Positions 12,203 through 55,188 of a stretch of 64,000 bases of DNA are shown here, piece after piece. Below the pieces are notes generated by a model. It was not told the DNA's origin and searched no databases. It worked only from the letters and a program-made list of their open reading frames with translations. The position numbers were made by a program, and so were the translations under genes. Source of the DNA: an uncultured delta proteobacterium (lineage in GTDB: Bacteria; Myxococcota_A; Polyangia; Polyangiales; Polyangiaceae); NCBI GenBank assembly GCA_963696385.1, contig CAVOKF010000007.1, forward strand, positions 1,344,001 to 1,408,000, given 5' to 3'. Numbering within the stretch: the first letter of the stretch is position 1; the number at the start of each line of letters is the position of its first letter.

Positions 12203-12311
12203 CAAATCGGTTTGCCGCTCGGTGACAACGGAAGCCCCTAAGACGCGATATGTTTCCGCGGGGTCTTCCGCGGCTCTTCGTTGACCGATACCCTTTCGAC
12301 TGGCTACTCGC
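12203..12311 (-). repeat. 110-bp site family, copy A (109 bp)
   Basis: rc: GCGAGTAG...ACGAAGAGCCGCGG...GGAAACATA TCGCGTC TTAGGGGC...AACCGATTTG. Confidence 0.9.
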
Positions 12312-12392
12312 CTCGGCGGTGGACGAACGAGTGCGCGTCTGAGACCATGCAGTTCGACCTGCCGCGAGCGTGCGTGGACGCTTAAGTCGCCG

Positions 12393-12875
12393 GTGGCATT
12401 CGCGGAGAGACTCACGGCGGCGACCGACGGGCGGTCCACGGATGCGTACAAGTACAACCTTGTTGACGCCGAACCCGGCGGCCATCACTGCTGCACGAGC
12501 CTCGGGGAGTACCGGGTCATCGTGGGCCGCGTTGAGGCAACCGTCGACGCGCTCGCGGAGATTCGCACGAGCTTCGTGCCGCTGGCCGCCGGCGATCCGG
12601 ACCTGGGATGGGAGCCCGCGTCGGTGGGCGCAGACGACGTCGATGCACGCACGTGGACGGACCTCTGCGCCTTCATCGACGGCATCGTCCGCCGCGGAGT
12701 ACGAGGGCCGCCCCAGTTCATGAACAAGGGGGCGATCGCGGAGTTCCCCAGCTTCGAACTCGCGCGCGCGCTGTGCCGCAGCATCATCGCGCGATCTGGC
12801 TGCAGCCAGGGCCGGCCGGGCTGCGTGGCGATTCCCCCTCTAGCTCCACTACGGGCGCAGCGCCGTCAGTCTTGA
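12393..12875 (+). CDS. Hypothetical protein between inverted sites A and B
   Basis: 160-aa ORF with coding-like composition; may be a fragment. Confidence 0.45.
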   Translation: MAFAERLTAATDGRSTDAYKYNLVDAEPGGHHCCTSLGEYRVIVGRVEATVDALAEIRTSFVPLAAGDPDLGWEPASVGADDVDARTWTDLCAFIDGIVRRGVRGPPQFMNKGAIAEFPSFELARALCRSIIARSGCSQGRPGCVAIPPLAPLRAQRRQS

Positions 12876-12927
12876 CGGACGGACGATCGACTACGGCCTT
12901 CACGAGTTGGCCACGCTCGTCTGGAGG

Positions 12928-13016
12928 GCGAGTAGGCGGCGCAAAGCTTGTCGGCCGACGAAGAGACGCGGAAACCGCCGCGGTCACATAAAAGGCCTTT
13001 GGGGCGCTCGTTGTCA
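12928..13016 (+). repeat. 110-bp site copy B, part 1 (resumes 14967-14987)
   Basis: Rejoined exons give 110 bp; right arm identical to copy D. Confidence 0.9.
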
Positions 13017-14966
13017 GTCGGGTAGGCCGGGGATGTTGTCTCCCCGGCCCCCCTTCGGATCCGGACGTGCGCAATTCACGCATCCGGCTCTTCGGTCACG
13101 GGTTCGCTGCGCGCGGGAGAAATGGGTGAGCGATGCGAGGCGGCGGGAGCGGGTAGCGCTCCAGCAGAAGCCGCATTCGCTTCCAAGGCATATGGCGTCG
13201 TTGCGACCGGCGGTTGAGCCACCGGCGCCACAACGCAATAGTCTTGCGGCAGAAGAGCGCGATGGCGCGGAAATTCCCGGTGATTCCGTAATATCCGTAG
13301 TGACCACGCAGCTTTTGCCCAAGTGCCTTCTGCTGCTCGCGGATGGCGTCGTGCCGGTGCTCCCTGCACCATTGCGCGACCCGCGACACCGCTCTCCGGA
13401 AGCGGTCTTTGGCTGTTTTGCGCATGACAATCCACTTGCCAGAGCGAGCTTTGCCCCAGTAGTGCGTGAAGCCGAGTAGGTCGAAGCTGCCAGGACCTCG
13501 GTCGCCGCCATCGACTTTCGATGAGCGACGGTCAGGGCGCTGAAACTCCACCAACCGCGTCTTCTCGGGATGCAGCGCCAGGCCGTACGCACCCAATCGC
13601 TTCGGCAGCACGTCCAGCACCTTGCGGGCATCCACTTCATGCGAAAACAAAAGCACTGCATCGTCCGCGTAGCGGACGAGCAGCGCCTTGCCCGAAAGCC
13701 TTGGTTTAACTTCGCGCTCAAACCAGACGTCGAGCACCTCGTGCAGGAAAATGTTCGCCAGAATCGGCGAAATCACCCCGCCCTGCGGTGTGCCCGTTTC
13801 CGGATACGCAATGGCTCCGTCTTCGAGCACGCCCGCATTCAACCACTTTCCGATGAGCCGCAGCAGCACTCCGTCGTGCACCCTGCGGCGTAGGACTTCC
13901 CGTAATTTCCCGTGGTCCAGGACGTCGAAGAACTTGCGTACGTCGACCTCGAGGACCCACCCGCCACCCATCATTACCGCTTGATTCTGCAGGGTCTCGA
14001 GCGCTTGATGCGCCGAGCGCCCCGGCCGGAAGCCGTACGAGCAGTCCAGAAAGTCCTGCTCGTAGACCGCCTCCAGCACCATCGCGACCGCGCGCTGCAA
14101 TACCTTATCTTCGAAGCTGGGAATGCCGAGCGGTCTCGTTTCCGAGCCGCTCCCCTTCGGGATATGGACTCGCCGCACCGGCGGTGCTCGGTACGTACCA
14201 GACTTCGCGCGTTCGAGAAGCGACTGCAGGTTGCCCTCCAGGTTTTCCGCATACTCTTGCGCGCTCTGCCCGTCTACGCCACGAGCCCCGTCCTTGCGTG
14301 TGCGTCGGTACGCTTCGCGGAGCCAGTCGGTATCGATGTGATGGGCAAGCGTTCGGAACGCCATATCGGGCGCGTCCTTCGCCAGCTTTGCTATCCGTTC
14401 GAGTTTCGTTGAGATGGGAATTGAGTTCGGCGCCTCGGCCATCGTTCCCTCCAGCGGTTCCGTGTTTTCCGGTGCCGCCCTTTGCTCGGCGGGGTCCCTT
14501 GGGACGGTTCCCCCGCGTCGTCGCTCCTACTGCGGCACTCCGACTTCCCGTCGCCCATCGCGCTTGGCTTCGTTGCCTTCGCCGCGCACTACCGCCGCAA
14601 TTCAACAGCCGGAGGCGCCGGGATATCCCAGGTTCCTGGACCGTCCTTTGCGTACATGCCCTGCTGTTCACCCCGGCAGAGTCGACGGGCCAGGCCTTCG
14701 GGCTCGCCCGACTTTTCGGCACGTCGATGTTGCCTTCCGCGTTTCAAAACGCGTCGGCCTCCGCGAAGAGACGGATTTCGAGGCTCTTTGCACGGCCTGC
14801 ACGCCCGCTGTGTACGCTTCGCAGCCGCGATTGCTCGCGAACCACGCAACACTCGCTTCCGGCTGGCGGCCCCGCCTTGGCCGGTCGGGAATTTCACCCG
14901 CGGACGGTTACGTGAGGTTTCCGCTCTTACATGTCTTCCTCCTCACCCAGGCTTCGCCTGGCGCAC
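13017..14966 (-). mobile_element. Group II intron 1 (probably class E)
   Basis: 5' GTGCG at 14966; DV 'GAGCCGGATGCGTGAATTGCGCACGTCCGG'; 3' ..CCTACCCGAC; intron-free target present at 17153-17262. Confidence 0.93.
13096..14442 (-). CDS. ltrA: Group II intron RT/maturase (no endonuclease domain)
   Basis: 'RPLGIP', '[17 protein letters not shown]', 'RYADD', domain X. Confidence 0.95.
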
Positions 14967-14987
14967 TTGAAAGCGCCGTCCCAATTG
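14967..14987 (+). repeat. 110-bp site copy B, part 2
   Basis: TTGAAAGCGCCGTCCCAATTG, as in copy D. Confidence 0.9.
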
Positions 14988-14988
14988 A

Positions 14989-15190
14989 GTGTCCTGCCTT
15001 TCTGCGAAGTCGTTCACCGGACAGGAATTCCATCGCCTTGCAGCGACGGCGACTGACGCGCAGCTGGAGACGGCGCAGATCGAGTTGGCCCGGGCCGCAG
15101 TGTCGAAGTTCGACCTCGGCACGAATGTGCTCGCGTTCGACACGACGAATTTTGACACGTACATCGCCACAACAACCGAGGGAGCAGCTG
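14989..15190 (+). pseudogene. IS1634-like transposase internal fragment
   Basis: 'NVLAFDTTNFDTYI' resembles the first catalytic Asp region. Confidence 0.5.
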
Positions 15191-15416
15191 CTGCTTCTTG
15201 ACGGGCGCAGAGCTCGAGGGCGCCGGCTCGGTCCGCGTCGAGCCCATCGGGGCACGCGAGCCGTTGCTCGAGCTTTCGGGTGATCTTGCCCGCACCCTTG
15301 GCGATGGGGGTCCCGATCGCGCGCAAGTGGCACGTTGAGTCTCGTCCCCTCGCGCAAGGGCGTTCTCGCTCGCTGCTCGGAGAAAAGCGCCTCGTCGCAC
15401 TTGACGGTCAAATGGA

Positions 15417-15465
15417 AGCCGGTCGAAAGCGTATCGGTCAACGAAGAGCCGAGGAAGCCGCCGCG
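15417..15465 (+). repeat. 110-bp site copy C (partial left arm)
   Basis: AGCCGGTCGAAAGCGTATCGGTCAACGAAGAGCCGAGGAAGCCGCCGCG; no core. Confidence 0.8.
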
Positions 15466-15566
15466 ATGGCCGCGCGACCGGCAAAGCACCTTCCGGCGGG
15501 CTGAACCCAACCCAAGCGGGCACGACAAGTCCAGGTCTCCCCTGCCCCGTCGGGCGTACTTGCGGT

Positions 15567-16778
15567 TTAGGCTGCCCAGGCGCTCGGGGGAACGGCCACA
15601 GGATCGCCTGGAACCAGGGTGGCCACGGATACGTGCGGCCAAGTCAGGCCGGCGAAATTCAGGAACACGACCTGTGAGTATTGGATTTGCGTCGATGTAA
15701 CTGTGATCGTGATCGGTGTCGGAATGTCGCGCGGGGGCTCTACATGGAAGACCGGTGCGAATCGTCCGGACGGACCCGACGCCGGGATCTTCAAAGGGGC
15801 GTCTCCCAACTTGAAGACTGGAACGACAATCTTGTGCTCCACGGTCTCGATCCAGAACGTCGCCGTCATCTTGACAGCGTTGGCGTTCGGGTTCGTCGAA
15901 GTCGGATCGCCCAGCAAGAACGCGATGTCGTCCGTGCCTCCGCCGAACTCCGGCGGCGGGGGTATCGTCGAAACGGTAAAGACAATGGTGTTAGTGATCG
16001 TCTGCCCAGCGATGGCCTCTCGCAGCACGGTATTGGGGTCATTCAGGATGGGCTGGGTGATCGTTCCAGCCGCGATGAATTTCGTCAAGTCCTGCGGGAT
16101 TCTGGGGGTATCTCCATTCGACGCCGTCTGACTGGCAAATTGGATCAGATGTGGCGGGCTGCTTCCAATCAAGAACGGCGTGATGCTGACCGGCGGGATC
16201 GTGGGAGGACCCTTGATTGACGTCGTCGGCTCGAGGGTCTGTGCATTGATGGTGGTGCCGTGCGGGATGGACGCCATACGCACCAAGGAATTGGCCAAAA
16301 CGGGCCGCGTCTTGGTGGCTGGAATATGCATCCACAAGCCAGGCTCGAAATGAATAGCGGTTGCCGGCCCGTCCCCCTTGCCCGTTGCCTGGTTGGTCAC
16401 GTCCTTGATGGCTTGAACGTAGGGCACGCCATTGAGAAAAATGTCGTTCTGATCTTCCAAGCCACGATTGGGCACATTCCCGAGTGGGCTGCTGAAAGAC
16501 AGAGTCTCGGTCGTCAAGTTGAGCTCCAGAACGTTCTCGCTCGGTGGCGTTGGGGGCGCAGGGGTGACAGGGGTCGGAAAGGTGGTGGTGGTTGGCGCCA
16601 CGCTATTGGGACGAAAGATCATGTTGAAGCCGCTGCCGACGAAGGTACCGGTGAAGTTGGCCAGAACGCCAAGCGGCGGTGTCGGAGCTGGACCGACGCG
16701 GCGAACGGGTGCGATTTCATCGATGTGGAAATCAGGCGGCAGAGAGATCTGAGCAGGTTTGGACGTCTCGTCTGACAT
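15567..16778 (-). CDS. Putative heme-binding protein
   Basis: 'GFNMIFRP', 'VPNRG', 'IHFEPGLW', 'RMASIPHG', 'IQYSQ..L.F....WPHVSVATL'; family recalled, not searched. Confidence 0.7.
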   Translation of the reverse strand: MSDETSKPAQISLPPDFHIDEIAPVRRVGPAPTPPLGVLANFTGTFVGSGFNMIFRPNSVAPTTTTFPTPVTPAPPTPPSENVLELNLTTETLSFSSPLGNVPNRGLEDQNDIFLNGVPYVQAIKDVTNQATGKGDGPATAIHFEPGLWMHIPATKTRPVLANSLVRMASIPHGTTINAQTLEPTTSIKGPPTIPPVSITPFLIGSSPPHLIQFASQTASNGDTPRIPQDLTKFIAAGTITQPILNDPNTVLREAIAGQTITNTIVFTVSTIPPPPEFGGGTDDIAFLLGDPTSTNPNANAVKMTATFWIETVEHKIVVPVFKLGDAPLKIPASGPSGRFAPVFHVEPPRDIPTPITITVTSTQIQYSQVVFLNFAGLTWPHVSVATLVPGDPVAVPPSAWAA

Positions 16779-17152
16779 GGCGGTTATCTCCTCGTTGGTA
16801 GCGCGGTTGGCCCGTCTAGAATGCGATTCGAGGAGACAGTGTCCATTTCACTGCATTGCAGCGAGCAGTCCGAGCTTGTGGCTCAGCTTCAGGGCAACGA
16901 GTTTGCGGTTGGGCGGTAAGCGTGCAACGCGCCCCACTGTTTACCTGAGTTCAAGAAAGGTTCAGGGGGTCGGCGTCCGAGCGATCAAGCCACTGCCAAC
17001 GGTTCGGCAAGCTTCTTGCCCCGGTACACCTCGCGAATGTGGGCGAGCACGTTGAGACGGTCGTCGCGTCGACGTCGTTGCCGTGGCGGCAACAGAGCGC
17101 GGCCGTGTTCGGCGACTTCACGCCAGTGGTTTGATGAGGCAGAGGCCAGGCG

Positions 17153-17262
17153 GCGAGTAGCCGGTCGAAAGCGTATCGATCAACGAAGAGCCGCGGAAAC
17201 CGCGGCGGTCACATATAAGGCCTTTGGGGCGCTCGTTGTCATTGAAAGCGCCGTCCCAATTG
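17153..17262 (+). repeat. 110-bp site copy D (intact)
   Basis: GCGAGTAG...GGTCACATA TAAGGCC TTTGGGGC...CCCAATTG. Confidence 0.92.
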
Positions 17263-17349
17263 AGCGCACGTACGCTTACCCGTGCGTGCGCCTTTCTTTA
17301 CATCGCTACCGAAGGCGCAAGTGGTACGCTTGTCTATTGGGGGTGATGC

Positions 17350-17967
17350 GTGAGAGGGATAGGCTGGCTCTTTGCTCTGATATTCGGGGTCGTTCTAGTC
17401 GCCGCCGCAATGGGGTCACGCGATCGGGTCAGCCAGATCCGTGAGACTACGATGGCCTCTCCGGTCTCGCCCGCGACCACGACCGCGGCGGCGCGGGACA
17501 TCGAGATACCCGAGCGCGCCGTGATGCGTGCATGGATCGCAGGTGCGCCGCAGACCGACGAATTGCAAGCGTGTCTGAGCGCGCTCGGCTACGACGTGGG
17601 TCCGATCGACGGAATCGACGGCCCGAAGACGACGTCAGCCCTCAAAGCTTTCGTCGCGGGCGGCGAGCCGTCCGACGAACGCACCCGAGTCTGTTGGCGG
17701 GCCATCGAAACGAGACGAGCCTTCGATGCTATCGCTGTGCAGACTGCGCCGCCCGCGGTCGCCCCTGCGCCGACGTACCTACCGGCCTCTCAACAGGCGG
17801 CAACGGCTGCCCGGCAGACGGGTCCGGGGGCAGAACTGCCCGGACTGCCCGCCGCGGGCTACGGCGACGTCTCGAACACGACGGGCCTGCCGCGGACCCA
17901 GTGCGTGAACGGCTACACGCGGAAAGACGGGACCTACGTTGCCCCGTATTATCGGAGTCACCGCTAG
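17350..17967 (+). CDS. Exported peptidoglycan-binding domain protein
   Basis: N-terminal TM/signal; 'LQACLSALGYDVGPIDGIDGPKTTSALKAF'; C-terminal 'VNGYTRKDGTYVAPYYRS'. Confidence 0.8.
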   Translation: MRGIGWLFALIFGVVLVAAAMGSRDRVSQIRETTMASPVSPATTTAAARDIEIPERAVMRAWIAGAPQTDELQACLSALGYDVGPIDGIDGPKTTSALKAFVAGGEPSDERTRVCWRAIETRRAFDAIAVQTAPPAVAPAPTYLPASQQAATAARQTGPGAELPGLPAAGYGDVSNTTGLPRTQCVNGYTRKDGTYVAPYYRSHR

Positions 17968-18136
17968 GCTCCACGAACGGACGTCGGCCCGCGAACGGGG
18001 CTTCGGCCGGTCGACCGGAAACGCGGGGGAACGTTCAAACGGTCGGCATGGTGAGGGAATGCTACTTCGGGGCGAAGCGCAAGGTCATGGGCGCGGGACG
18101 TTATAATAAAAGGTGGACACTGCCAGTCGGTTCAGT

Positions 18137-18328
18137 ATGCTCTTGAGCATGCACGAGTTCATCCCGGTTGCTGTCCTGGTCGGCGCGACGTGTCAGATCT
18201 GCGGGCGCTACCTAACAGCCGAAGACGCCGCCGATGCTTCCCATCAAGAGACGGTGATTTGCATGTGCGGGAGCCGAGAGTTTCGCTTGCTGAATGGCGA
18301 GTGTTTGATGGACTGTCCAGACGCATAG
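18137..18328 (+). CDS. Small Zn-ribbon-like protein
   Basis: CQIC...CMCG motifs. Confidence 0.35.
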   Translation: MLLSMHEFIPVAVLVGATCQICGRYLTAEDAADASHQETVICMCGSREFRLLNGECLMDCPDA

Positions 18329-18912
18329 CTGCGGCGTAAACCCGCGACCGCCGGCCCCGGCGTCCTACTCACTCCGCCACCCCGGCCAAATGAAAGATGA
18401 GCGCCACGACCAGCTCGCCCTTGGCGTTGGTCTTGATCCCCGAGCGGCAGGCGTAGCCGAGGGCGTGCGCGGCGGCCTTGAAGGCTTCAAGGGCAGAGAC
18501 GAGGGCGATCAGGATGCCTTCCCATCGGGTGGCGCTCATACCTGAACGTATGATCGGTACCGGCACGGCGTCAAGGACCGCTTCCCGCGCATCGCTGAGA
18601 GTGCGGCAATCGTAGCGCCCGGCGAAATTGGCACGGGTAAGTCCCTCAGCGGCGGCAGGACTGCGGAACGTCTCCTTCTAGTCTCTTTGACAGTTTGTTT
18701 GGCCAAATTGTGGCGTTGGCCCGGTTGATCGCGTAGTCCGCGCCGTGTGGAACTGTTCAAACGTTCCGGTTACTTGGACGAGTTGCTATCACTTCAGAGC
18801 CGGCAGACCGCGAAAAAACAGCGATTTTGCAGCACGGCGCGGCGTGCGTATAACATCCAAAGTGTTGGACGGGCGCGTGGACTCGCCCTTGGCCAACCGG
18901 AGTACATGGGGC

Positions 18913-19095: not shown

Positions 19096-19101
19096 CCGCG
19101 C

Positions 19102-22072: not shown

Positions 22073-23056
22073 ATGAAGCGCCCCCTCGACGGCTTGTGTC
22101 TCGCCCTGGCGCTCGCTCTCGCCTCGCCGCTCACCTCGGCGCAGACCGCGCCGGCGGGCCCCTCCGCGCACGATCGGCCCCTTGACAGCGTGCTTCAAGG
22201 GGCGGCGAAGGATGCGTACGTTTCGGCCCGGATCCTCTTCAACAACGGCGACTTCGCGGGTGCGGCCACCAAGTACGCCCAGGCGTACGATCTGTCGAGG
22301 GATCCGCGGCTGATCTTCAATCTCGCCATCTGCGAGAAAAACGCTCGCCACTACGCCCGAACGCAAGACTTGCTCGAGCAGTACGAGCGCGCGCTGGGCG
22401 CGCGGATCACGGCGGACGACCGAGCGACGGTCGACGCGGCGCTGGCGGCGCTTCGGAACCTGGTCGGAACGGTGCGGCTTGCGGTGACCGAGGCGGGGGC
22501 GTCGGTCTCGGTCGACGGCAAGTCTGTGGGCACGACGCCGCTCGACGCTCCGCTGCGGCTCGATCTCGGCGAGCACGCGCTCCGCGTGAAGAAGGCGGGG
22601 TTCGCGACGCACGATCAGACGGTGGAGGTCTCGGGGGGCAGCGAGACCGCCATGGCCATCACGCTGATGGCGGAGGCGCACGGGGCTCACCTCTTGGTCG
22701 TGGGCGAAGAGGACGCGACGGTGGCGATCGACGACAGGACCGTGGCCCAGGGGCGCTTCGACGGCCGAGTTGCGCCGGGCGTGCACACCGTGATCGTGAC
22801 GGCGCCGGGCAAGGTCGCATACAAGGCGGAGGTCGACCTGAAAGACGGCGAGACGCGCAGCGTGAACGTGACGCTCGAGAGCGACAACCACGGGGCCGCG
22901 GTCTGGCCGTGGATCGTGGGCGGGGTGGTGGTGGCGGCTGCCGGAGCGGCCGTCGGCGGGTACTTTTTGTTCCGGCAGCAGCCCGCGCAGGCGTCGGATC
23001 CGCCGGACAACCTGGGGTCGGCTCAACTTCCGCTCTCGGTGTGGGGGCGGCGATGA
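22073..23056 (+). CDS. TPR + PEGA domain protein
   Basis: Signal peptide, TPR helices, PEGA repeats ('GASVSVDGKSVGTTPL'), C-terminal TM. Confidence 0.85.
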   Translation: MKRPLDGLCLALALALASPLTSAQTAPAGPSAHDRPLDSVLQGAAKDAYVSARILFNNGDFAGAATKYAQAYDLSRDPRLIFNLAICEKNARHYARTQDLLEQYERALGARITADDRATVDAALAALRNLVGTVRLAVTEAGASVSVDGKSVGTTPLDAPLRLDLGEHALRVKKAGFATHDQTVEVSGGSETAMAITLMAEAHGAHLLVVGEEDATVAIDDRTVAQGRFDGRVAPGVHTVIVTAPGKVAYKAEVDLKDGETRSVNVTLESDNHGAAVWPWIVGGVVVAAAGAAVGGYFLFRQQPAQASDPPDNLGSAQLPLSVWGRR

Positions 23057-25899
23057 TCGGGTCGACCCGGTCGAACGACCGAAGCCGCCGATCCGCCAGG
23101 TCGCGTGGGATCGGGTGGGCGCGTGCCCTACCATTGGCCGCGTGCATAGTGACCGTGGGGTCGGCGACGGGCGGATGCTCGAAACCCCCCGCGAAGCCCG
23201 TGGACGGCCTCGAGCTCGTCGTCTCGACCGAGGGGCTGAACGCCCCGCAAGACTTCGACGACATCAAGCTCGAGGTGAGCGACCAGGCGGACGGGGGAGG
23301 CTGGAACAAGATCTGGGACAACGACTACACGCTGCCCTCGACGGAGGTAACGCTGCCGGCGACCTTCACGCTGTTTGCGGGGCAAAGCCCCGACGAGGTG
23401 CTCATCGCCGTGACGGCATATCAGCACGGCCAGGGTGGGACCCCGGTGGTGCAGCGAGTCGCGCAAGTGCAGGTCCCGACCGACCGCCTTGCAGTGCTGT
23501 ACCTCGTCCTGGCGCAGCAGTGCGAGGGGCAAGTGGTCGAGGCCGGCGACGGGGGCGAGCCGATGTCCCTATGCGCGAGCGGAGAGAGCTGCCAGCCGAG
23601 CACGGGCGTGTGCGGGTCGAATATCATCCCGCCATCGGCGCTGCCGACGTATACGCAAGGGCAGAGTCTCGACGCGGGGCCCGACGGCGGGTTGGGCAGC
23701 GTGGTGGCCAGCATGCCGCCGAGTTCGGGCAGCTCAGCAACCAGCAGTTCGGCGTCAAGCAGCTCGGGAGCGGGGGGGACGAGCACATCCACGAGTACGG
23801 GCACCGGCACGTCCACCGGCACGGGCGCGGACGCGGGGCCGAGCGTCACCGGTACCGCCACGGGCACCGGTACCGGGTGCACGGATGCGTGCACCGCGGG
23901 TTTGACCGAATGTATCGACGCGGGCGTGCAGACCTGTCAGACCCAAGGCGGCTGCACGCAGTGGGTCGCGACGGTCACGTGCGGCAGTCACCAGACGTGC
24001 GCGGTCACTGGCGACATTGCCGCATGCGGTTGCACTTCGACGATCTGCACCACGACGGGAGCGGTGTGCCAGGACGCCCAGACGGTTGCGACATGCGCGA
24101 AGGACGCAAACGGTTGCCTCGACGTCGCGTCGACCGTGACCTGCACGTCTCCGGAGACCTGCGCAGCAGGCGATGGTGGCCTCGGCGCCGCGTGCTCGCT
24201 GACGTGCAGCAGTAGCTGCACCAAAGGGCAGGCGTCGTGCGTCTCGGGCGATCTGGCCACCTGTACGCAGGGGATCAACGGTTGCTCGGCTCTCGGCACG
24301 CCGGTCGCGTGCGGCGCCCACCAGAGCTGCACGGGAAGCGCTTTGGCGGCGACGTGCACGTGCAACCCGTCAACCGTTTGCATCGAGATCGGGACCGCGT
24401 GCGACGGGACCGGGACCGTCGCGACATGCGACAAGGACGCGAACGGTTGTTTCTTCGCTGCATCGACGCAAGCATGCGCGTCACCGGAGTCGTGCGTGGG
24501 GGCCCCGCCGAATGCGAAGTGCGCGCTCACTTGCACCAATAGCTGCACGTCGGGCCAGACGTTATGCGTCACGGGCGGCCTCGAGACGTGCACGCTGGGT
24601 ACCGACGGCTGCTGGGCGTACGCGCCGGCGGTGGCGTGCGGGGCGCACCAAAGCTGCACGACGAGCGCCGAGGTGGCGGCATGCACGTGCAACGTTAGCT
24701 CGACGTGCACGGTCGTGGGGAACGCGTGTGAGTCCACATCCACGTTGGCAACGTGCGCACAGGACGCGCAGGGGTGTTTCTTCGAATCGCAATTGACGAC
24801 GTGCACCAACGGCGCGTGCAGCGCTGGAGCGTGTTGCAGCAACGCGTGCACGATCGGAGCCGGTCAGTGTGTTCCGGGTGGGCTGGAGACGTGCACGCAG
24901 CAGCCGAATGGGTGCGCGGCATGGGGAAGTACTGAAGCCTGCCCGGCAGCGATGCCGAATTGCACCGCAGGAGCCTGCGATGCGCCGCCGAGTTGCCAAG
25001 TGAGTGCGGTGGGCACGACGAATTGCGGAACGGCCAGCGAAAGCTGTTGCACGAGTCTAGAGGTGACGGGCGGGACGTACGATCGGACGTACGCGAACAG
25101 CGGCACCGGACCGACGGGCGTAGCCGATCCGGCGATGGTGAGCGGGTTGCGCATGGACAAGTATTTGGTGACGGTGGGTCGTTTTCGGCAGTACGTGAAC
25201 TACCTTACGGGCAACACGGGCGCGCCGCCGGCGAACGGCAGCGGTATCCATACGCATTTGAATGGGGGGCGGGGACTGGCCAATAGCGGAGCTGCGGGGG
25301 CGTTCGAGACGGGCTGGGACGCGACGGACTGGGACACGTACATCGCCACGGGGGCTGGCGCGCCTAGCACGTGGAATACGTACCTGTCCGATTGCGGCCT
25401 ATCGAGCACGTGGACGATTTCCGCGGGCACTCATGAGAACCTGCCAATTAATTGCTTGGATTGGTACCAGGCCTATGCATTCTGTATTTGGGACGGGGGC
25501 TTTTTGCCCAGCGAGGCCGAATGGGAATACGTGGCGGCAGGCGGTAGCCAGGAGTTAGAATATCCGTGGGGTTCTACGGATCCCGGGACCAGCAGCCTGT
25601 ACGCAATTTACGAGAACGACGACATGACCGCGGCGGTTGGCTCAGCGAGCCTCGGCGCTGCCACTTGGGGCCAGCTAGATATGGCGGGCAATGTCGACGA
25701 GTGGAACCTCGATTGGTATGCAACCTACGTCGATCCGTGCGCAGATTGTGCCTACCTTTCCTCAACCTCCAATCGCGTGATCCGGGGCGGCAGTTGCGAG
25801 TCTACCGGCACGTCGCTGTTGCAGCCGCCCAGCCGCAGCGACGACTTTCCTGCAGATATCGAGGAGTGGATCGGGTTCCGGTGCGCCAGAAGGCCCTGA
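23053..25899 (+). CDS. Large lipoprotein with Cys-rich repeats and C-terminal FGE-sulfatase domain
   Basis: ATGA overlap; three ~110-aa Cys-rich units; FGE motifs ending 'GFRCARRP'. Confidence 0.9.
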   Translation: MIGSTRSNDRSRRSARSRGIGWARALPLAACIVTVGSATGGCSKPPAKPVDGLELVVSTEGLNAPQDFDDIKLEVSDQADGGGWNKIWDNDYTLPSTEVTLPATFTLFAGQSPDEVLIAVTAYQHGQGGTPVVQRVAQVQVPTDRLAVLYLVLAQQCEGQVVEAGDGGEPMSLCASGESCQPSTGVCGSNIIPPSALPTYTQGQSLDAGPDGGLGSVVASMPPSSGSSATSSSASSSSGAGGTSTSTSTGTGTSTGTGADAGPSVTGTATGTGTGCTDACTAGLTECIDAGVQTCQTQGGCTQWVATVTCGSHQTCAVTGDIAACGCTSTICTTTGAVCQDAQTVATCAKDANGCLDVASTVTCTSPETCAAGDGGLGAACSLTCSSSCTKGQASCVSGDLATCTQGINGCSALGTPVACGAHQSCTGSALAATCTCNPSTVCIEIGTACDGTGTVATCDKDANGCFFAASTQACASPESCVGAPPNAKCALTCTNSCTSGQTLCVTGGLETCTLGTDGCWAYAPAVACGAHQSCTTSAEVAACTCNVSSTCTVVGNACESTSTLATCAQDAQGCFFESQLTTCTNGACSAGACCSNACTIGAGQCVPGGLETCTQQPNGCAAWGSTEACPAAMPNCTAGACDAPPSCQVSAVGTTNCGTASESCCTSLEVTGGTYDRTYANSGTGPTGVADPAMVSGLRMDKYLVTVGRFRQYVNYLTGNTGAPPANGSGIHTHLNGGRGLANSGAAGAFETGWDATDWDTYIATGAGAPSTWNTYLSDCGLSSTWTISAGTHENLPINCLDWYQAYAFCIWDGGFLPSEAEWEYVAAGGSQELEYPWGSTDPGTSSLYAIYENDDMTAAVGSASLGAATWGQLDMAGNVDEWNLDWYATYVDPCADCAYLSSTSNRVIRGGSCESTGTSLLQPPSRSDDFPADIEEWIGFRCARRP

Positions 25900-26059: not shown

Positions 26060-26153
26060 CAAATCGGTTCGCCGATTCAGCGATAACGAACGCCCCTAAG
26101 ACGCGATATGTTTCCGCGCCCGCTTCCGCGGCTCTTCGTCGACCGACGCACTT
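26060..26153 (-). repeat. 110-bp site copy E, part 1 (remainder at 36595-36610)
   Basis: Joining both parts gives exactly 110 bp starting GCGAGTAGGCCGTTCA|AAGTGCGTCGG. Confidence 0.9.
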
Positions 26154-26197
26154 GTCGAGTAGCCCCGGGCGCTTACTGGCCCCGGGGCCCTCGCCGG

Positions 26198-28199
26198 GTA
26201 GGGTCGAGGACTGGCGCGGTGGCGTGCAGGGGGGCCAATCTGTTTCCGTCCCTTTCGGTTGACGGTGCCTCACTTGCCTCTCCATCGCTCCGTTTCCAGT
26301 CCCCGCCTCGTCCAACGGAGCAGGCGGATTTCCCGCACTCCGCTGTCCTGCCAGCTTCGCGCCAAGGTTTATGGGACCTATCGTGCTGGGAGCGCTTTCG
26401 GCATGTCCTGCCGCGGAGCCACTCGGTACCCATTGAAGAGCCCGAGCGTTCCGTAGAGCCATGACCTACTCCACCTCTTCCAGCCGAAACCGGGCAGGTT
26501 CCGGGCACGCATCAGATGTCGCCTCACCTTCTTCTCCACCCAGTCCTTGACGAAGCCGAAGCATCGGCTCGAGTGACCCACTCGAAAGTATTGCACCCAT
26601 CCGCGTAGAATCGGATTGATAATCTGCACCACCCGCTCCACCGGCTGGGACTGAAAACGTCGGAACACGTCCTTGAGCTTGCGCAGCAGCGCCGTCCGTT
26701 TCTTGCGTTGCGGCGTCAAATGCGGACGCCATTCACCGCGGAGACTGCGGATGCGACGAAAGTCAAAGCCGAGAAATCCGAAGCTCTCGTCTTTCGAGAG
26801 GTCCACGAGTCGACTCTTGTCTTCGTTGATTTCCACGTGAAGTTTGCTGAATTCTTCCCGGAGTCTACGGTTGACCGCCTGCAGCAACCAGGCATGGCGT
26901 CGGTAGGCGTCCACGAGGACCACAAGATCGTCAGCAAAGCGCGCATATTCGACATATGCGTACTTGCCTTCGGCCGTGACCTGTTTGGCGCGCTCGAGCA
27001 TCCTATCGACCTCATTGAGGTACAGGTTGCTGAGCACGGGTGAAATTACCCCGCCTTGGGGAACTCCCCTCTTACCGGATGCTTTGAGAATCATCGACAG
27101 GAGAGTCATGACCGCATCGTCGTTCACGCGCTTTGCGACTTTTTCGAGCAACACATGATGCCGAACGTTGTCGAAATAGGCTCGCAAATCGATGTCGAGG
27201 ATCCGGGTCTTATTCCTGACGACGGCCTCCGCTACCCGGCGGACCGCGCCATGCTGCGACCGCTTCGGGCGGTAGCCGTAGGACCCCGGTTGGAAGTCAG
27301 CTTCGAAAATGGGTTCCAGAATGAGCTTGAGTGCCCCCTGGACCACACGGTCGCGGATTGCAGGTATCGAGAGGACGCGAGTTTTGCCCCCATCCTTCGG
27401 TATCGCTTTCCGACGGTTCCGCATGGGTCGATACTGATGCGAGACTAGTTCGTCCCGTATCTGCCCGAGGAACTTCTCGACGCCGCTTGCCTCGATGGCC
27501 TCGAAGGTGACGCCGTCGATACCCGGCGCTCCATCGTTCTGCTTAACCATCTCGTAGGCGGCCTCAATCGTTTCCGTCTTGCAGACGTGGACGTACAGTC
27601 CCCAGAAACGCCAGGTTGGTTCAGCCTTCGCCTTCGCGTATATCCTCCGTCTCAGGTCCTGCAGACTAATAGGCGCCTTTATCATATCGCCCCTGCCTTC
27701 CGTTTCGTAAGAGGAATTACCAACAGCAGGGCCGCTTCGCTCCACGGGCATTACCCCGCTTCGACGCTACTACCGGCCCCTCCGCCACCCTTTCGCCTTC
27801 GGCCGACTTCCCGGGGTTGCCGGTTATACGACCTACCTTTTTCCGTCGATTTCTCGTCGGGGCGAGGAGGGCTTCTCCAGTTTCCAGCGCGTTCTTGTCT
27901 CCGTGCCGTCGCTACCACCCCGCCGGAGCGGTCCACCACGTCAACCAGTTTGTGGTGTGCCGTGCTGCCTTCGCCCTCCGGTTGAGGGCTCGGCCTCCGG
28001 GGTTTCTCCTTTTCGGGGCCACCTCTGCGTTCACTTTCGTTACGGCCCGGGGACTCGCTCACCATCCTTGCGATGGCTTTGTCAGTGGGCTTTAGGTCAT
28101 CGATTTCTCTCCTTCCTACCACTCAAGCTACGAGGCCTCTGGTTCTTAGCCTCGGTGGGACTGGCTCCCACAAAACGCGCCAGCCTTAGCTGGACGCAC
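26198..28199 (-). mobile_element. Group II intron 2 (probably class F) inserted in DV of intron 3
   Basis: 5' GTGCGTCC at 28199; 3' ..CGACCCTAC at 26198; upstream exon is DV 'GAGCCGGATGGTGGAAATCTCCTTGTCCGGTT'. Confidence 0.88.
26378..27685 (-). CDS. ltrA: Group II intron RT/maturase
   Basis: 'LQDLRRRIYAKAKAEPTWRFWGLY', PQGG, 'RFADD'. Confidence 0.93.
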   Translation of the reverse strand: MIKAPISLQDLRRRIYAKAKAEPTWRFWGLYVHVCKTETIEAAYEMVKQNDGAPGIDGVTFEAIEASGVEKFLGQIRDELVSHQYRPMRNRRKAIPKDGGKTRVLSIPAIRDRVVQGALKLILEPIFEADFQPGSYGYRPKRSQHGAVRRVAEAVVRNKTRILDIDLRAYFDNVRHHVLLEKVAKRVNDDAVMTLLSMILKASGKRGVPQGGVISPVLSNLYLNEVDRMLERAKQVTAEGKYAYVEYARFADDLVVLVDAYRRHAWLLQAVNRRLREEFSKLHVEINEDKSRLVDLSKDESFGFLGFDFRRIRSLRGEWRPHLTPQRKKRTALLRKLKDVFRRFQSQPVERVVQIINPILRGWVQYFRVGHSSRCFGFVKDWVEKKVRRHLMRARNLPGFGWKRWSRSWLYGTLGLFNGYRVAPRQDMPKALPAR

Positions 28200-28253
28200 A
28201 ACCGGACAAGGAGATTTCCACCATCCGGCTCTTCCGCTGAGCTGGCTCGTGGG

Positions 28254-28793
28254 TTACGTCCCCCAGATTCGGACCTTGATGCGGGGACGCGGGAGAGGAA
28301 GACGCTGCAGAAGCTCGTCATACTTTTCCCAGGTGAGGTGCGCTTGTTGGCTCCGACGGCGGAGCCACTTATACCAAACTCGCCTCGTCTCTTCGGCAAA
28401 CAGAAGCAGACTGCGAAAGTTGCCGCTGATGCCGAAATAGTTGAAGTGACCTTGGATGCGCCTCGTGAGCGCGGCGTGCTGCTCCTTGACCGGAAGGTGT
28501 CGATGGCGACGACACCAGTCCGCGACGGCTTGAATCGACCGTCGTAGGCGCGCACTCCGTGTCTTGCACGTCATTCCCCATCGACCGCTTCGGGAGCGCT
28601 GCCAGTACAGCGTGAATCCCAGAAAGTCGAAGGTGGCCGGACCCTTGCCGCCAACTTGCTCCGCCGGCGGACGCCGGAAGGGCAAGAGGCGGGTCTTGTC
28701 CGGGTGCAGGGTCAGCCCGAAACGCCCCATCCGCTTTCCCAGAACGTTCCATCACACGCTCCGCGTCGTCCTGATGTTCGAATGTCATCACGA
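28254..28793 (-). pseudogene. ltrA: Intron 3 RT, C-terminal exon (+1 frameshift near 28747)
   Basis: 'FVMTFEHQDDAERVM' then 'RFGLTLHPDKTR..FDFLGF' in the next frame. Confidence 0.8.
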
Positions 28794-30672
28794 GGTGAGT
28801 AGGCTGGGGGAATTTCACCCCCAGCCTCTCTCAGAACCGTACTTGAACGTCTCCGCTCATACGGCTCCCATCATCCAACCGCCGGCTTCAGCCCCAGCAA
28901 CTGCCAGTGCGCGAAAAGCCGAGGCTCGCGGCGACCGATGCCTCCGAGCCAATGCTCAGCTCGGCGACGGTGTCGTCGCAGCCTTTTGAATTTCCTCATG
29001 GCCCAACGGACGAGCAATCCGTTGAAGTGTCGGAAGACCGAGTGCAGGGCAGACTTGTAGAACCGACCGTAGTACTGGATCCAGCCCCGAAGGACTGGGT
29101 TCCACATGCGTGCCAAGTCGTCGATGGCCTTGTCGCTCCGCAGAGGAATCCGCCAGCGTCGCATTTCCTGTCGCATCCGCTTCGCCGCGTCGTTGCTGAC
29201 GGCGGGGGTGAAGTTCACGAAGAACTTCCCCCGCCGATTCTTCGACCGGCGAGGACGGAACGTGTACCCGAGGAAGGTAAACTTCTCCTCGGGATAGCGC
29301 CCCTTCCTATCGTCATCTTTGCAGTAGACGATGCGCGTCTTCTCGGGATGCACTTCCAATCGGCAGTGCGCGAGTCGACGCTTGATGTTCGCCAGGACCT
29401 GCTGTGCTTGCTTCTCCGTCTTGCAGTGCGCCACAATATCGTCCGCATACCTCTCGAACGGCACGTCCGGATGCGTTGTGCGCATCCATTCGTCGAACGC
29501 GAGATGCAAGAAGATATTTGCCAGAAGAGGACTCGCTACCCCGCCTTGCGGAGTCCCCTTCGTTCGCGGTACCCGCGTGCCATCCTCCAGTTGCACGGGG
29601 GCTTCCAGCCACCGCTTTACATAGAGAAGGACCCACGGGCACGGCGTGTACTTGCCGACCGCGCGCATTATCAGCGCGTGGTCGAGGTTGTCAAAGAAGC
29701 CTCGGATGTCCAGGTCGATGACCCAGTCGTATCGCCAGCATCGCTGCCGGGTCGCCGCCAGAGCATCGGCTGCAGACTTCCGTGGCCTGTACCCATAGGA
29801 ATCGGGGTGGAAATGCGGCTCCACTTCCGGTTCCAGATACATCTTGACGACCGTCTGGGCGACCCGGTCTGAAACGGTCGGTATGCCCAGACGCCTCTCG
29901 CCTCCGTCTTTCTTCGGTATCGCTACCGACCGAACGGGCGGCGGGAAGTACGTTCCCGACGACATGCGATTCCAAATCTTATAGAGGTTGTTCTTCAGAT
30001 TCTTCTCGAACTCCTCGATGGACTCGGAATCGACTCCGGCCGCTCCGCCGTTCGCCTTCACCCGCTTATACGCTTCCCACACCGCCATTTTGGAAATGCT
30101 ATACGGCTTGGCTTGGCTCGGCGGCTCCTCCCGCTTCCGCGGTTGACCGTCGATACAAGCCGAATGACGCGACCCCCTCGCTCCATCGGGTTTCCCCGGC
30201 TTCTCCGCTACTACGGGCCGCTCCGCCCCTGTGCCTCGCATCGGTACTCTCATCCTCGTGGGGCCTCCACTTGGACTTCTCCCTTAACATCGAGGCGACA
30301 GGTTCCCACGTTCCACACAAGGGCCTGGTCTCGGTTCACGCCACCTTTATGCCGGATGCCGCCCAGGCCAGCTGCAGGTTCCTCCTGGGCTTGTCCCGGG
30401 CAAACGACTCGTCCCGGTTTTGACATCGTTCCTACGCTTTCGACACGTTTCCGGTGGTTCATTCGCTTCGTCTCCCGAGGCCTCACCTGACGCGATCATC
30501 GCCGCGCCTTTTCCATCGACGCGCACCACCCCGGCTCTTTACCGGAGCAGCTCGTGGTGGTTTGGAGCCGGTGCCTGCCGACCGACCCGAGGGGCCTACC
30601 CTCATCCCTTGTGCAGCAAGGCAGCGTTTTAGTTGACCATTTCGGTCTCCCTTCCGCGCCGTCGTGGCGCAC
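28794..30672 (-). mobile_element. Group II intron 4 (class D, RmInt1-like) inserted just after YADD of the intron 3 RT
   Basis: 5' GTGCGCC at 30672; 3' ..CTACTCACC at 28794; splicing restores YADD-F-VMTF. Confidence 0.9.
28871..30123 (-). CDS. ltrA: Group II intron RT/maturase (start uncertain; first ATG 30088)
   Basis: 'VWEAYKRVKANGGAAGVD', 'LYKIWNRMSSGTYFPPPV', 'FERYADD'; CCG sits at the expected start after GGAGGAG. Confidence 0.9.
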
Positions 30673-36594: not shown

Positions 36595-36610
36595 TGAACG
36601 GCCTACTCGC
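36595..36610 (-). repeat. 110-bp site copy E, part 2 (5' exon of intron 3)
   Basis: rc GCGAGTAGGCCGTTCA. Confidence 0.85.
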
Positions 36611-36977
36611 CTCCCTTGCGATGGAGGCGGCCGTTCTCGAAGTTGAAGCCATCTCGGGCGAGCCAGCGCGTGAGCCCGTCGAGAGTGCGCCGCCCTAGCT
36701 GGGCGTCGTAGGTCGTGCCGATGCCCTGGCTCACGGTGGTCAGCACATTCTCGTAGACCGCCAGGATCTTCCGGACGTCCTCCCATTTCGTGAAATCGAC
36801 GGCGTGGTAGTAGGTCTCGACGAAAGAGCGGCGCGCCCCGGACTCGGGACACTGGTCGTTCGGCTCGCGGGGTACGTCCGCGGCCTCGAACTCGCGCTCG
36901 ATCTCTCGCAACGTCCAGCCGACGAAGAACTCGCGGAATTCGGTGCGCGTTTTCTTGCTGATGATGTCTCCAGCCAA
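36603..36977 (-). pseudogene. Probable N-terminal fragment of an abortive-infection (AbiJ-like) protein
   Basis: 'ISKKTRTEFREF..WTLREIEREF..RRSFVETYYHAVDF'; stop codon lies inside site E; family is recalled, not searched. Confidence 0.45.
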
Positions 36978-39860: not shown

Positions 39861-39982
39861 CAATTGGACGGCACTTTCAATGGCAACGGACGCTCCTAAG
39901 ACGCAGATTAAGACGCGATATGTTTTCGCGCCCGCCTCCGCGGGCTCTTCGTCGACCGGCAGGCTTTGAATGGGCTACTCGC
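39861..39982 (-). repeat. 110-bp site copy F (122 bp; duplicated core)
   Basis: rc ..AAACATA TCGCGTC TTAATCTGCGTC TTAGGAGC...CCAATTG. Confidence 0.88.
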
Positions 39983-39984
39983 GA

Positions 39985-47395: not shown

Positions 47396-47401
47396 CCCTG
47401 A

Positions 47402-53517: not shown

Positions 53518-53592
53518 CGTGTCCAAAGCGGCGACCGTACGCTTCGCGCGGGGCGATGGTCCACGAGCGAGCCAGGCCGCCTCGACGGTTGA

Positions 53593-53664
53593 GCGAGTAG
53601 GCGCTCCAAAGCTTGTCGGCCGACGAAGAGACGCGGAAACCGCCGCGGTCACATATAACCCGTT
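53593..53664 (+). repeat. 110-bp site copy G, part 1 (resumes 55151-55188)
   Basis: Left arm nearly identical to copy B; rejoined length 110 bp. Confidence 0.9.
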
Positions 53665-55140
53665 CATAAGTTGGTACTTAGGGATTCGGGATGGCGCTCG
53701 CTACCACACAAGTGCGAGTGGCTCGAGGCCCATAGCGAGACGTCCGCGCTTTCGATCGCGAGCAGGATGAGCGCGGCGCGCGTTGGAATCGAGGAACTTG
53801 AGCGTTTCGGCGAGGGCACGACGTAGTTGGCGCGGCGAGTCGAGAAGGCCGCGGAGGACATCGTCGAAGTAATGCTTGCCGGACGCGGCGGCTCGCTGGG
53901 TCGAAAGCTCCACCCCCAGCGACGCTTCCGCGAAGTGTGCGAGCGAGCGTTTCAGAAGGGCTGCGAGCAGGCTCGCCCATATCATCGCTTTCGCGATAGC
54001 GGCCTTGCCCGTATCGAAGGCATGAAGGTTGGCGTGGGATTTGAACTCTTTGAACAGGAGTTCCACCTGCCAGCGGAGGCGATACAAGCCGGCCACGTCG
54101 GCGGCGGAGAAGCGCTTGCGGGCGAGGTTGCTGTGCAGGTACACGAACGTCTTCGCGTTGCGCTTGCCGCGCTTGTAGATCGCCACAATTCGCCCGCGAT
54201 ACACGAATGAATTCGCCTGCCATTCGATGTCGAGATCGACCGTCTGGGCCGGAAGCAGGTCCCAGTTCAACTTCTGGCCGAGCAACTTGGGGATGGATTT
54301 GCCGGCGCTGTCGAAAGCGGCCCGAATGGTGGGTCGAATGTTTTTGGTTCCGCGGACGATGAAGGCGCCGCCCGCTTGGTCGACGTCGAAAAAGAATGTT
54401 CGCTCCTCGTACCCTCGGTCGGCCAGAAAGAGCCGCTCGCGAAGACTCGCGGCCTCGGGACGGTAGGTTCGCTCGGTCTCCTTGTCGGCCGTCAGGGCGA
54501 CGATGCGCACATCGTCTTGGAGCAGACTCATCGTGACGTGCAGTTCCACGGCGGCTGGCGAGATTTTCGTAAAGCGGCCCGGCCATGTGCCTTTCAAGTC
54601 GTCCTTGAGCGCGAACGACGTCCCGTCGTGAATGACGATGTCCCGAAAGGTCGACAGTTTGGGGGACACGGCGTGCAGAACCGGCTGGCTCATCTTCTGT
54701 ACCGTCGCTTCCAGCAGCATCCGAAACATCTCTGGAAAGGACGCTTGCGCGAGCCGGTTGTGAAAGGGCTTATATCGCAGCGAAAGGCCCGCGAATTTCC
54801 GGAACGTCCGCAGAATATCGGCCAACCACTTGGCGTGGCCCGACCCGAGCGTGGACAGCACCGCCACGACCATCGCCAGCGGCATCACCTTGCGCACTCG
54901 CCGTAGCCAGCCGCTACGTCTCGCGATCGCGGTCACCTGCTCCTCGCCGAGTACTTCCGTAAGCCGTTTCGCATACACGCCGACTCCGGCGCGTGTACTG
55001 TTTGATCCGTGCATCGGGGGTCTCCTTTCGCGTTGTCTCACAACAGCGTCTAGAGAATCCCCGATGCCTTTGACTATCCAATTCGTGCACTATGCACGTA
55101 AGTGATCGAGATCACTCGGGAAATAAAGATCCTACCTATG
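53665..55140 (-). mobile_element. IS4-family element inserted in the core of site G
   Basis: Ends CATAAGTTGG/CATAGGTAGG; 10-bp TSD ATAACCCGTT (53655-53664, 55141-55150). Confidence 0.92.
53701..55014 (-). CDS. IS4-family transposase
   Basis: 'HDGTS', 'ADRGY', YREK 'YRLRWQVELLFKEFK'. Confidence 0.92.
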   Translation of the reverse strand: MHGSNSTRAGVGVYAKRLTEVLGEEQVTAIARRSGWLRRVRKVMPLAMVVAVLSTLGSGHAKWLADILRTFRKFAGLSLRYKPFHNRLAQASFPEMFRMLLEATVQKMSQPVLHAVSPKLSTFRDIVIHDGTSFALKDDLKGTWPGRFTKISPAAVELHVTMSLLQDDVRIVALTADKETERTYRPEAASLRERLFLADRGYEERTFFFDVDQAGGAFIVRGTKNIRPTIRAAFDSAGKSIPKLLGQKLNWDLLPAQTVDLDIEWQANSFVYRGRIVAIYKRGKRNAKTFVYLHSNLARKRFSAADVAGLYRLRWQVELLFKEFKSHANLHAFDTGKAAIAKAMIWASLLAALLKRSLAHFAEASLGVELSTQRAAASGKHYFDDVLRGLLDSPRQLRRALAETLKFLDSNARRAHPARDRKRGRLAMGLEPLALVW

Positions 55141-55150
55141 ATAACCCGTT

Positions 55151-55188
55151 AGGGGCTTCCGCCGTCGCTGTAATGGCGAACCGATTTG
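55151..55188 (+). repeat. 110-bp site copy G, part 2
   Basis: AGGGGCTTCCGCCGTCGCTGTAATGGCGAACCGATTTG. Confidence 0.88.

Follow-up and report, generated by a model that had tools for sequence, protein, structure and literature searches.

Through the window, as we call the 64,000-nucleotide stretch C7:1344001-1408000 of an uncultured Polyangiaceae bacterium (host genome 6.94 Mb, 8 contigs, 65% G+C), runs a dispersed 110-bp repeat whose core resembles the candidate chromosomal dif site of its host. We favor reading the repeat as a Xer-type recombination site with accessory arms that bounds gene modules and draws site-specific parasites, and give this reading a probability of roughly 45%; it is ranked first because of the dif match. 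On this view the unit would serve tyrosine recombination through its core, a mimic of the host dif, and the host XerC and XerD would exchange DNA at the spacer. Excision, insertion or inversion could then move the gene stretches between copies as modules, and such traffic would build the cassette-like arrays of mobile islands. Because it is conserved and abundant, the unit would also have become a landing pad for site-specific parasites, with an IS4-family insertion sequence (IS) settling around the spacer, a group II intron at positions 16/17 and 89/90, and an ISCR/IS91-like element docking via the GNNC at the 3′ end. Binding of Xer proteins, strand exchange at the spacer, mobility of the modules and a role for the arms are what we infer from the DNA sequence.

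Structure of the Repeat and Comparison With dif

Numbered from 1 to 110, the unit has its XerD-like arm at positions 55-64, its spacer at 65-70 and its XerC-like arm at 71-81, flanked by a conserved left accessory arm of 54 bp with a CGCGG...CCGCG hairpin and a conserved right accessory arm of 29 bp with a terminal hairpin. The variable center of 7 nt described in an initial annotation of the window is better read as this 6-nt spacer between two arms. Overall the unit is a mosaic in which constant blocks (GCGAGTAG, AAAG, ACGAAGAG, the CGCGG...CCGCG stem, ACAT, TTAGGGGC, CGT and CCGATTTG) alternate with variable blocks of few types. There are two main core subtypes, GGTCACATAA... and GGAAACATAT..., and the commonest type of 3′ hairpin reads AATCGG-CGAA-CCGATT, followed by G and a variable NNC.

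A comparison of the core with the host dif, which the initial annotation had proposed, gave a positive result, as both arms and the 6-nt spacing match. Of the 41 genomic occurrences of the motif ACATAW-N6-TTWGGGGC, 40 lie within repeat copies and the other is at C3:50574. This last site (C3:50570-50594) reads GTTCACATAA-TGTTCC-TTAGGGGCC and is present in a single copy; only model positions 49-81 align with it, and repeat positions 55-81, comprising the arms and the spacer, align to C3:50570-50596 with the same 6-nt spacing. A generic dif pattern, allowed at most one mismatch, matches the genome in only three places: at the C3 site, within one of the repeat copies, and at a dif-like sequence adjoining a repeat remnant. 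When the spacer was left free, the pattern of the C3 site matched 14 of the 31 genomes of the genus, each of them exactly once, and the reversed pattern used as a control had no match in the 31. The cumulative GC-skew maximum of the contig, which belongs to a draft assembly, lies at 60-70 kb, 10-20 kb from the site at 50.6 kb. We therefore take C3:50570-50594 as a candidate chromosomal dif.

Identity of the repeat arms to this candidate has a median of 14/19 and a best value of 16/19 among 64 unique copies, compared with a mean of 10.1 and a maximum of 14 for shuffled 110-mers (n = 1280). The spacer is the least conserved stretch of the unit, with 21 variants among the same 64 copies. The repeats and the dif candidate have the same XerC-like arm, TTAGGGGC, in G000 and G003, the two repeat-richest genomes. 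Contig C3 also encodes a XerD-like protein of 311 aa (314 bits to TIGR02225, cut-off 329.6), which passes the PRK00283 subfamily cut-off, and a XerC-like protein of 306 aa (310 bits to TIGR02224, cut-off 335). The repeat, then, has two arms around a center in the 6-8-bp range that resemble the candidate dif of the host, and the host has XerC- and XerD-like proteins in the form of two paralogues just below the equivalog cut-offs.

Some copies are broken at the point where Xer proteins would act. Left arms ending in ...CACATAA are joined to one common foreign sequence at three places in the genome and at seven fetched loci; these half-sites comprise at least four different left arms, and the break is at the border between XerD arm and spacer. 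At one locus (L082), 165 bp of inserted DNA separate a good XerD-like arm from a good XerC-like arm, and each of the two faces a poor partner arm, a layout that integration at the spacer would be expected to leave. One pair of loci with an identical left flank diverges from approximately position 79. Left and right arm types combine freely.

Repeat Copies in the Window

The family was recovered by repeat detection (families D3, D5, D10 and D11; inverted pairs I9-I13). All six full copies and the partial copy C of the initial annotation were found where it had placed them, and its observation that B, D, E and G are each exactly 110 bp long held when their coordinates were read. The copies and their parts are as follows.

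12203-12311, minus strand: copy A, full length, 109 bp, spacer CGCGTC (profile match)
12928-13016, plus strand: copy B, left part, positions 1-89, core intact, spacer AAGGCC
14967-14987, plus strand: copy B, right part, positions 90-110 (total 110 bp)
15417-15465, plus strand: copy C, left-arm fragment, model positions 7-57, core absent
17153-17262, plus strand: copy D, full length, 110 bp
17207-17216, plus strand: XerD-like arm of copy D, GGTCACATAT
17217-17222, plus strand: spacer of copy D, AAGGCC
17223-17233, plus strand: XerC-like arm of copy D, TTTGGGGCGCT
26060-26153, minus strand: copy E, positions 17-110
36595-36610, minus strand: copy E, positions 1-16 (total 110 bp)
39861-39982, minus strand: copy F, 122 bp, with a 12-nt tandem duplication spanning the spacer
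53593-53664, plus strand: copy G, positions 1-72
53655-53664, plus strand: copy G, first copy of the target duplication ATAACCCGTT, positions 63-72
55141-55150, plus strand: copy G, second copy of the target duplication
55151-55188, plus strand: copy G, positions 73-110 (total 110 bp)

Copies B and E are split because group II introns of the same family are inserted at 89/90 and 16/17, respectively, and copy G because an IS4-family element is inserted in its core. Copy F owes its length of 122 bp to the tandem duplication across the spacer. An open reading frame (ORF) upstream of copy E (36603-36977, minus strand) stops at a TAG within GCGAGTAG.

Group II Introns and an IS4-Family Element Inside the Repeat

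The insertions that interrupt copies B, E and G were delimited as follows.

13017-14966, minus strand: group II intron in copy B at 89/90, on the strand opposite to the repeat (Rfam RF02005 and RF00029; RVT_1; junctions), with a GTGCG start at 14966, a ...CCCGAC end at 13017 and a reverse transcriptase (RT) ORF at 13096-14442
26154-36594, minus strand: insertion in copy E at 16/17, on the repeat's own strand (Rfam; Pfam; inverted repeats I1 and I4; junctions)
36594 to 26154, minus strand: ends of the outer group II intron of copy E, 5′ GTGCG at 36594 and 3′ ...CTACTCGAC at 26154
26378-27751 and 28871-30253: RT ORFs of two further group II introns within the insertion in copy E
30629-31453: truncated RT, belonging to the outer intron
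31564-34582 and 35878-36056: IS21-family copy within the insertion in copy E
53665-55140, minus strand: IS4-family element of 1476 bp in the core of copy G (NF033592, 181.5 bits, above cut-off; DDE_Tnp_1)
53701-55041: IS4-family transposase ORF

The IS4-family element is flanked by a 10-bp target duplication, ATAACCCGTT, that corresponds to positions 63-72, so the staggered cut takes in the spacer plus 2 nt on each side. Elsewhere in the genome the element sits at the same repeat position in both orientations, and its ends abut five of five right parts and five of ten left parts of the repeat. A tandem duplication of 11-12 nt over the spacer (ATCGCGTCTTA twice) is found in copy F, at C4:46443-46563 and at C2:103537-103657, and may be the footprint of a lost IS4-family element.

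Insertion of the group II intron is similarly recurrent. The intron 3′ end precedes four of the seven repeat parts in the genome that start at positions 15-18, and an intron junction abuts three of the four genomic parts that end at 88-91; the corresponding figure for parts from the fetched loci, 19 of 21, is not a count of independent sites because the loci overlap. Contig depth over the intron at 13017-14966 is approximately 5-12 times that of flanking unique DNA in contigs of four peat metagenome runs, and the intron is therefore multi-copy in those communities. The insertion in copy E stacks three group II introns of different Rfam D1-D4 classes and an IS21-family element, whose order of nesting we infer.

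One more transposase gene, of the IS110 family (L195 1233-2705, equal to C4:1018233-1019705), adjoins a repeat copy truncated at model position 101, and the corresponding element may be a fourth site-specific guest.

An ISCR/IS91-Like Element at the 3′ End

A Y2 HUH transposase is encoded at four loci in the genome (PF04986, above cut-off); its best NCBIfam match is ISCR clade Ia, below cut-off. At the end of the element the order is transposase stop codon, a 66-bp palindromic region, GTTC, GGTC or GCTC, and then the reverse complement of the repeat from its 3′ end. A fuzzy search for the origin motif returned 20 contexts, of which six were not IS copies according to BLAST and 14 were genuine ISCR/IS91-like ends. 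All 14, drawn from three genomes and from metagenome contigs, abut the 3′ end of a repeat. Upstream of the transposase gene, homology differs between copies. In the window, copy G is joined to a remnant of the element via the tetranucleotide GAAC (55188-55191), and an insertion with a serine recombinase parts the two remaining pieces.

55189-55586, minus strand: ISCR/IS91-like remnant with the oriIS palindromic region and the C-terminal part of the transposase (BLAST, 93% to the intact C4:36322-38202)
57397-57527, minus strand: 5′-side piece of the same element, query positions 1-131

A large serine recombinase element splits the ISCR/IS91-like transposase gene at the same point twice, at 55587-57396 and at C2:127405-129999.

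Passages of PMC13181058 on the IS91 family describe an essential target tetranucleotide beside oriIS, after the gene, and a subterminal palindrome by the terIS cleavage site, with no target duplication and with frequent one-ended transposition. The 3′ hairpin of the repeat with its G-NNC might correspond to such a subterminal palindrome; across the 40 full-length copies the flanking tetranucleotide is variable and there is no duplication. The 3′ end may mimic a termination signal. The repeat does not behave as a part of the element that would move with the Y2 transposase gene: it lies outside the oriIS tetranucleotide and outnumbers the transposase loci by approximately 20:1 (90 matches vs. 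4), and IS copies that are 92-98% identical adjoin different right-arm types. We read the ISCR/IS91-like element as a probable guest that docks at the 3′ hairpin and tetranucleotide of the repeat, because near-identical ISs stand beside varied arm types, because of the excess of repeats over transposase loci, and because copying does not extend to the side of oriIS on which the repeat lies.

The repeat copy on contig C3 adjoins a second, unrelated multi-copy element, which starts exactly at position 110. This element of approximately 1.1 kb contains a truncated ORF resembling a type IV secretion system coupling protein and is present in many genomes of the genus; copies were located as follows.

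57533-58694: copy in the window
L180 4110-5240: copy at a fetched locus
C8:3786-4390 and C4:33614-34736: copies elsewhere in the genome

Family Size, Ends, and Distribution

A profile built from the six copies matches the 6.94-Mb genome 90 times, far more than chance would give, and 40 of these matches are full length. When the 40 full copies were aligned with 60-nt flanks, similarity dropped abruptly before GCGAGTAG and after CCGATTTG/CCCAATTG, and the copies have neither inverted termini nor a target duplication, and the tetranucleotide flanking them is not conserved. The only preference in the flanks is for a purine, found in 37 of 40 copies at -1 and in 38 of 40 at +1. Copies are concentrated in islands where insertion sequences, integrases and conjugation genes abound, frequently close to the ends of contigs. 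These islands are chromosomal, with the addition of one 143-kb contig, and the seemingly isolated copy on contig C3 is also within an island, adjoining a tRNA gene. At C4:1140055-1140303, two full copies have their 3′ ends facing each other, 30 bp apart across a small hairpin.

Relatives were scanned with a sequence-only model (A1, R1). Four of the 31 genomes of the genus, a set that takes in two unpublished genomes without a match (G010 and G042), contain the family, with 85, 48, 4 and 1 matches; none of 150 other genomes from the same taxonomic family carries the repeat according to this model. A strict pattern found 26 stretches in species-representative genomes, 24 of them in one Polyangiaceae metagenome-assembled genome (MAG) and the remaining two on one contig of a MAG labeled Acidobacteriaceae, and at least 133 stretches in metagenome contigs. 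The 20 public runs that contain the region are peat, wetland and soil metagenomes. Where metagenome contigs of four runs (X1, X4, X7 and X9) were compared with 11500-18500, their joints were explained by other copies of the repeat. Whatever becomes of the Xer reading, repeats of this family show where the mobile islands of these genomes are joined together, and the family should be useful for annotating peat-soil metagenomes, where it is abundant.

Evidence for and Against Exchange at the Spacer

Several observations weigh against a Xer-type site. Junctions of mosaic copies fall in the hairpin loop (positions 40-52) as often as at the core, and general gene conversion could be the source of the mosaics. 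In many cases it is position 1 or 110, and not the core, where homology of the flanks stops: in two sets of loci the left flank and the entire repeat are identical and the sequences part only after 110, one pair breaks at position 1, and a truncated IstB gene fragment abuts position 1. In genome G044, comparison with five relatives shows a conserved gene cut 8 bp from position 1, and four copies that are 100% identical have unrelated flanks on both sides. The blocks GCGAGTAG, AAAG and ACGAAGAG are conserved as strongly as the arms, for which a Xer core offers no explanation. The commonest subtype, with the GGAAACATAT arm, matches only 6/10 of the dif XerD arm, and its total of 14/19 equals the best shuffle. 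Among 49 pairs of neighboring copies within 8 kb, 27 have the same orientation and 22 are opposite (14 divergent, 8 convergent), so that the arrays lack the alternation of Acinetobacter-type dif modules; neither do they match a one-way integron array. The invariable joining of ISCR/IS91-like ends to the 3′ end belongs with these points.

The breaks at 1 and 110 neither exclude nor support exchange at the spacer, because with few arm types the ends of a constrained site come to look like breakpoints. A search for empty sites matched none of 74 joined flanks in a small DNA set that was biased, having been chosen for carrying repeats. The proposal of the initial annotation that synteny breaks map to the central core has a mixed outcome: the half-sites and the pair diverging near position 79 agree with it, and the breaks at 1, at 110 and in the hairpin loop do not. 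Its broader interpretation, a dif/pdif-like tyrosine-recombinase site with long arms (pdif, plasmid dif), fares in the same way. The dif match, the Xer genes and the half-sites speak for it, and against it stand the frequent breaks at the unit ends, the mosaics in the hairpin loop, the non-alternating orientation and the ISCR/IS91-like element that is always at the 3′ end. No known IS end, miniature inverted-repeat transposable element (MITE) with target duplications, or Rfam RNA, the types of match that the initial annotation had set against its own interpretation, fits the repeat.

Alternative Explanations

The joining of every genuine oriIS to the 3′ end of a repeat via GTTC, GGTC or GCTC (14/14) can also be explained if the repeat is an end-module of an ISCR/IS91-type element, with the 3′ hairpin and GNNC as a terIS-like signal for the HUH transposase and ...CCGATTTGNNC as the presumed cleavage point. 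Arrays and gene fragments would then result from repeated one-ended transposition, and the dif-like core would be fortuitous or serve as an additional resolution site. The sharp repeat ends without target duplication or inverted termini are in keeping with this, as are the truncated genes at position 1 and the IS91-family features in the passages cited above (tetranucleotide, palindrome, absence of duplication, one-ended transposition; PMC13181058). We nevertheless consider such an origin rather doubtful, since four transposase loci face 90 repeat matches, and targeted insertion beside pre-existing repeats fits better with near-identical ISs (92-98%) next to different right-arm types. Under the IS91 model the repeat would lie beyond oriIS, on the side left behind by rolling-circle copying; two copies upstream of transposase genes are oriented opposite to a termination signal; and the dif match, the half-sites broken at the spacer border and the second element starting at position 110 are left unexplained. 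The sharp ends on both sides would equally suit a small non-autonomous mobile element that inserts as a whole and is mobilized in trans by some transposase, and so would the four identical G044 copies amid unrelated flanks and the wide variation in copy number among close relatives (85, 48, 4 and 1). Such an element is improbable: the unit has no inverted termini, target duplication or flanking tetranucleotide and does not qualify as a MITE, no empty site was found in the small, biased set (0/74), the far flank at the G044 locus is not a continuation of the cut gene, and half copies broken at the core are common. We also tried the unit as 110-bp inverted termini of larger transposons and rejected this, as six pairs (including D/E, B/F and IS-flanking pairs) had no target duplications. 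A REP/RAYT-type repeat, which would combine GTAG with a palindrome, was set aside because copies occur only in islands.

A dedicated tyrosine recombinase borne by the islands could act at the repeat in place of the host XerC and XerD, with the likeness to dif due to descent from a dif-targeting element. There are 32 phage-integrase family matches in the genome, many of them in the same islands, including 61705-63396 of the window, and the commonest subtype has a divergent XerD-like arm; no recombinase consistently adjoins the arrays, however, and the XerC-like arm TTAGGGGC is the same as that of the dif candidate in G000 and G003, which leaves this explanation with only a slim chance. Least probable, in our view, is a structured RNA (terminator, 3′ untranslated region element or small RNA) or an integron attC. 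Group II introns of this type target hairpins and attC sites, and such introns are inserted here; internal hairpins are present; and 14 of 40 copies have a co-oriented ORF as their nearest upstream neighbor, with its stop codon inside GCGAGTAG in six of those 14 (the nearest such ORF is opposite in nine copies and more than 400 bp away in 17). Yet folding z-scores (-1.74, -0.88, -0.54 and +0.21) are no better than shuffles, the consensus RNA or single-stranded DNA fold is weak and differs between arm types, and the lone Rfam match at E <= 1 is a chance snoRNA (E = 0.88; 16.8 bits vs. a gathering score of 50). The only Rfam families that reach the gathering score in the window are intron domains. 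The genome encodes no integron integrase (best TIGR02249 score 68.5 bits vs. a cut-off of 265), and the copies face both ways.

Comparison With Known Systems

The nearest described system to the Xer-type site proposed here is the plasmid dif modules of Acinetobacter. Three studies on these plasmids describe many 11-6-11 pdif sites with variable spacers that bound modules, including toxin-antitoxin modules, depend on host XerC/XerD and are carried by Rep_3 plasmids (PMC6449649; PMC13141974; PMC7399989), and insertion sequences that target Xer sites are reported from Acinetobacter in another (PMC10132070). The repeat shares with them its dif-like sites, variable spacers, toxin pairs between sites and site-targeting insertion sequences. 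It differs in the length of its unit, 110 bp including a fixed arm to either side of the core as against 28 bp for pdif, and in its location, which in this myxobacterial genome is in chromosomal islands and on a 143-kb contig; in addition, its orientations (27 same, 22 opposite) do not alternate, and gene fragments abut the ends of the unit.

The sites cer (ColE1) and psi (pSC101) have their accessory DNA, approximately 180 bp that bind PepA together with ArgR or ArcA, next to the XerC arm only, and occur once per plasmid. They are a precedent for accessory DNA beside a Xer core, whereas the repeat has short arms on both sides and about 90 copies. A dif-like core beside accessory DNA that controls the reaction is also described in a preprint (bioRxiv 10.64898/2026.02.23.706985). 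Similarity to IS91/ISCR elements consists of the Y2 HUH transposase, the palindromic origin after the gene, the GTTC-type tetranucleotide and the absence of target duplication; in contrast to those elements, the 110-bp unit lies outside oriIS, exceeds the transposase loci by some 20:1, and varies in type beside near-identical ISs. To our knowledge, a dif-like core is not a feature of IS91/ISCR ends. Among the best-ranked matches of our literature searches, we found neither dif-like repeat arrays in myxobacteria nor docking of ISCR elements at Xer sites outside Acinetobacter.

The arrays also bring integrons to mind, with short modules, a conserved structured site of approximately 100 bp that often follows a co-oriented ORF, and group II introns and site-specific insertion sequences hosted by the site. 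Integron attC sites are targeted by both. The repeat is set apart by a genome without an integron integrase, by copies in both directions and by a core that is dif-like and not of the R″/R′ type. It is conceivable, if unlikely, that the arrays form a chromosomal gene-cassette system run by the housekeeping XerC/XerD, in which the 110-bp sites would be counterparts of attC and ISCR-like elements would feed in gene fragments. Circular modules would be excised and inserted, making an integron-like platform that works without an integron integrase.

If the proposed Xer site is active, module shuffling by the universal Xer machinery would extend beyond Acinetobacter plasmids to soil myxobacteria, whose chromosomes would use a site of greater length and complexity, and the accessory arms of this site could reveal what directs Xer reactions when FtsK is not involved. 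Three unrelated guests that dock so precisely make the unit a natural system for studying how mobile elements recognize a recombination site.

Array Cargo and Neighboring Genes

In the arrays, copies are 0.5-4 kb apart, and the cargo between them is varied. It includes a ParE toxin pair, SIR2-like proteins, a Uma2 nuclease, hydrolases, FGE-sulfatase paralogues and many small ORFs of unknown function. We tried the TAG in GCGAGTAG as a general stop codon and rejected it, as open frames of at least 80 codons end there in 23 of 68 copies, compared with 20 and 15 in the other frames.

The FGE-sulfatase paralogues in the window (8692-11797 and 22909-25899) consist of a tandem 1.27-kb duplication and an inverted third copy, approximately 80% identical, and genes with this domain recur as cargo between repeats elsewhere. 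The two inverted IS21-family copies of the window (5133-8323 and 31564-36056) are 99% identical. The second is longer by 1.3 kb, in which a ParB-HTH ORF and a NinG-like ORF are found, an addition common to most other copies in the genome.

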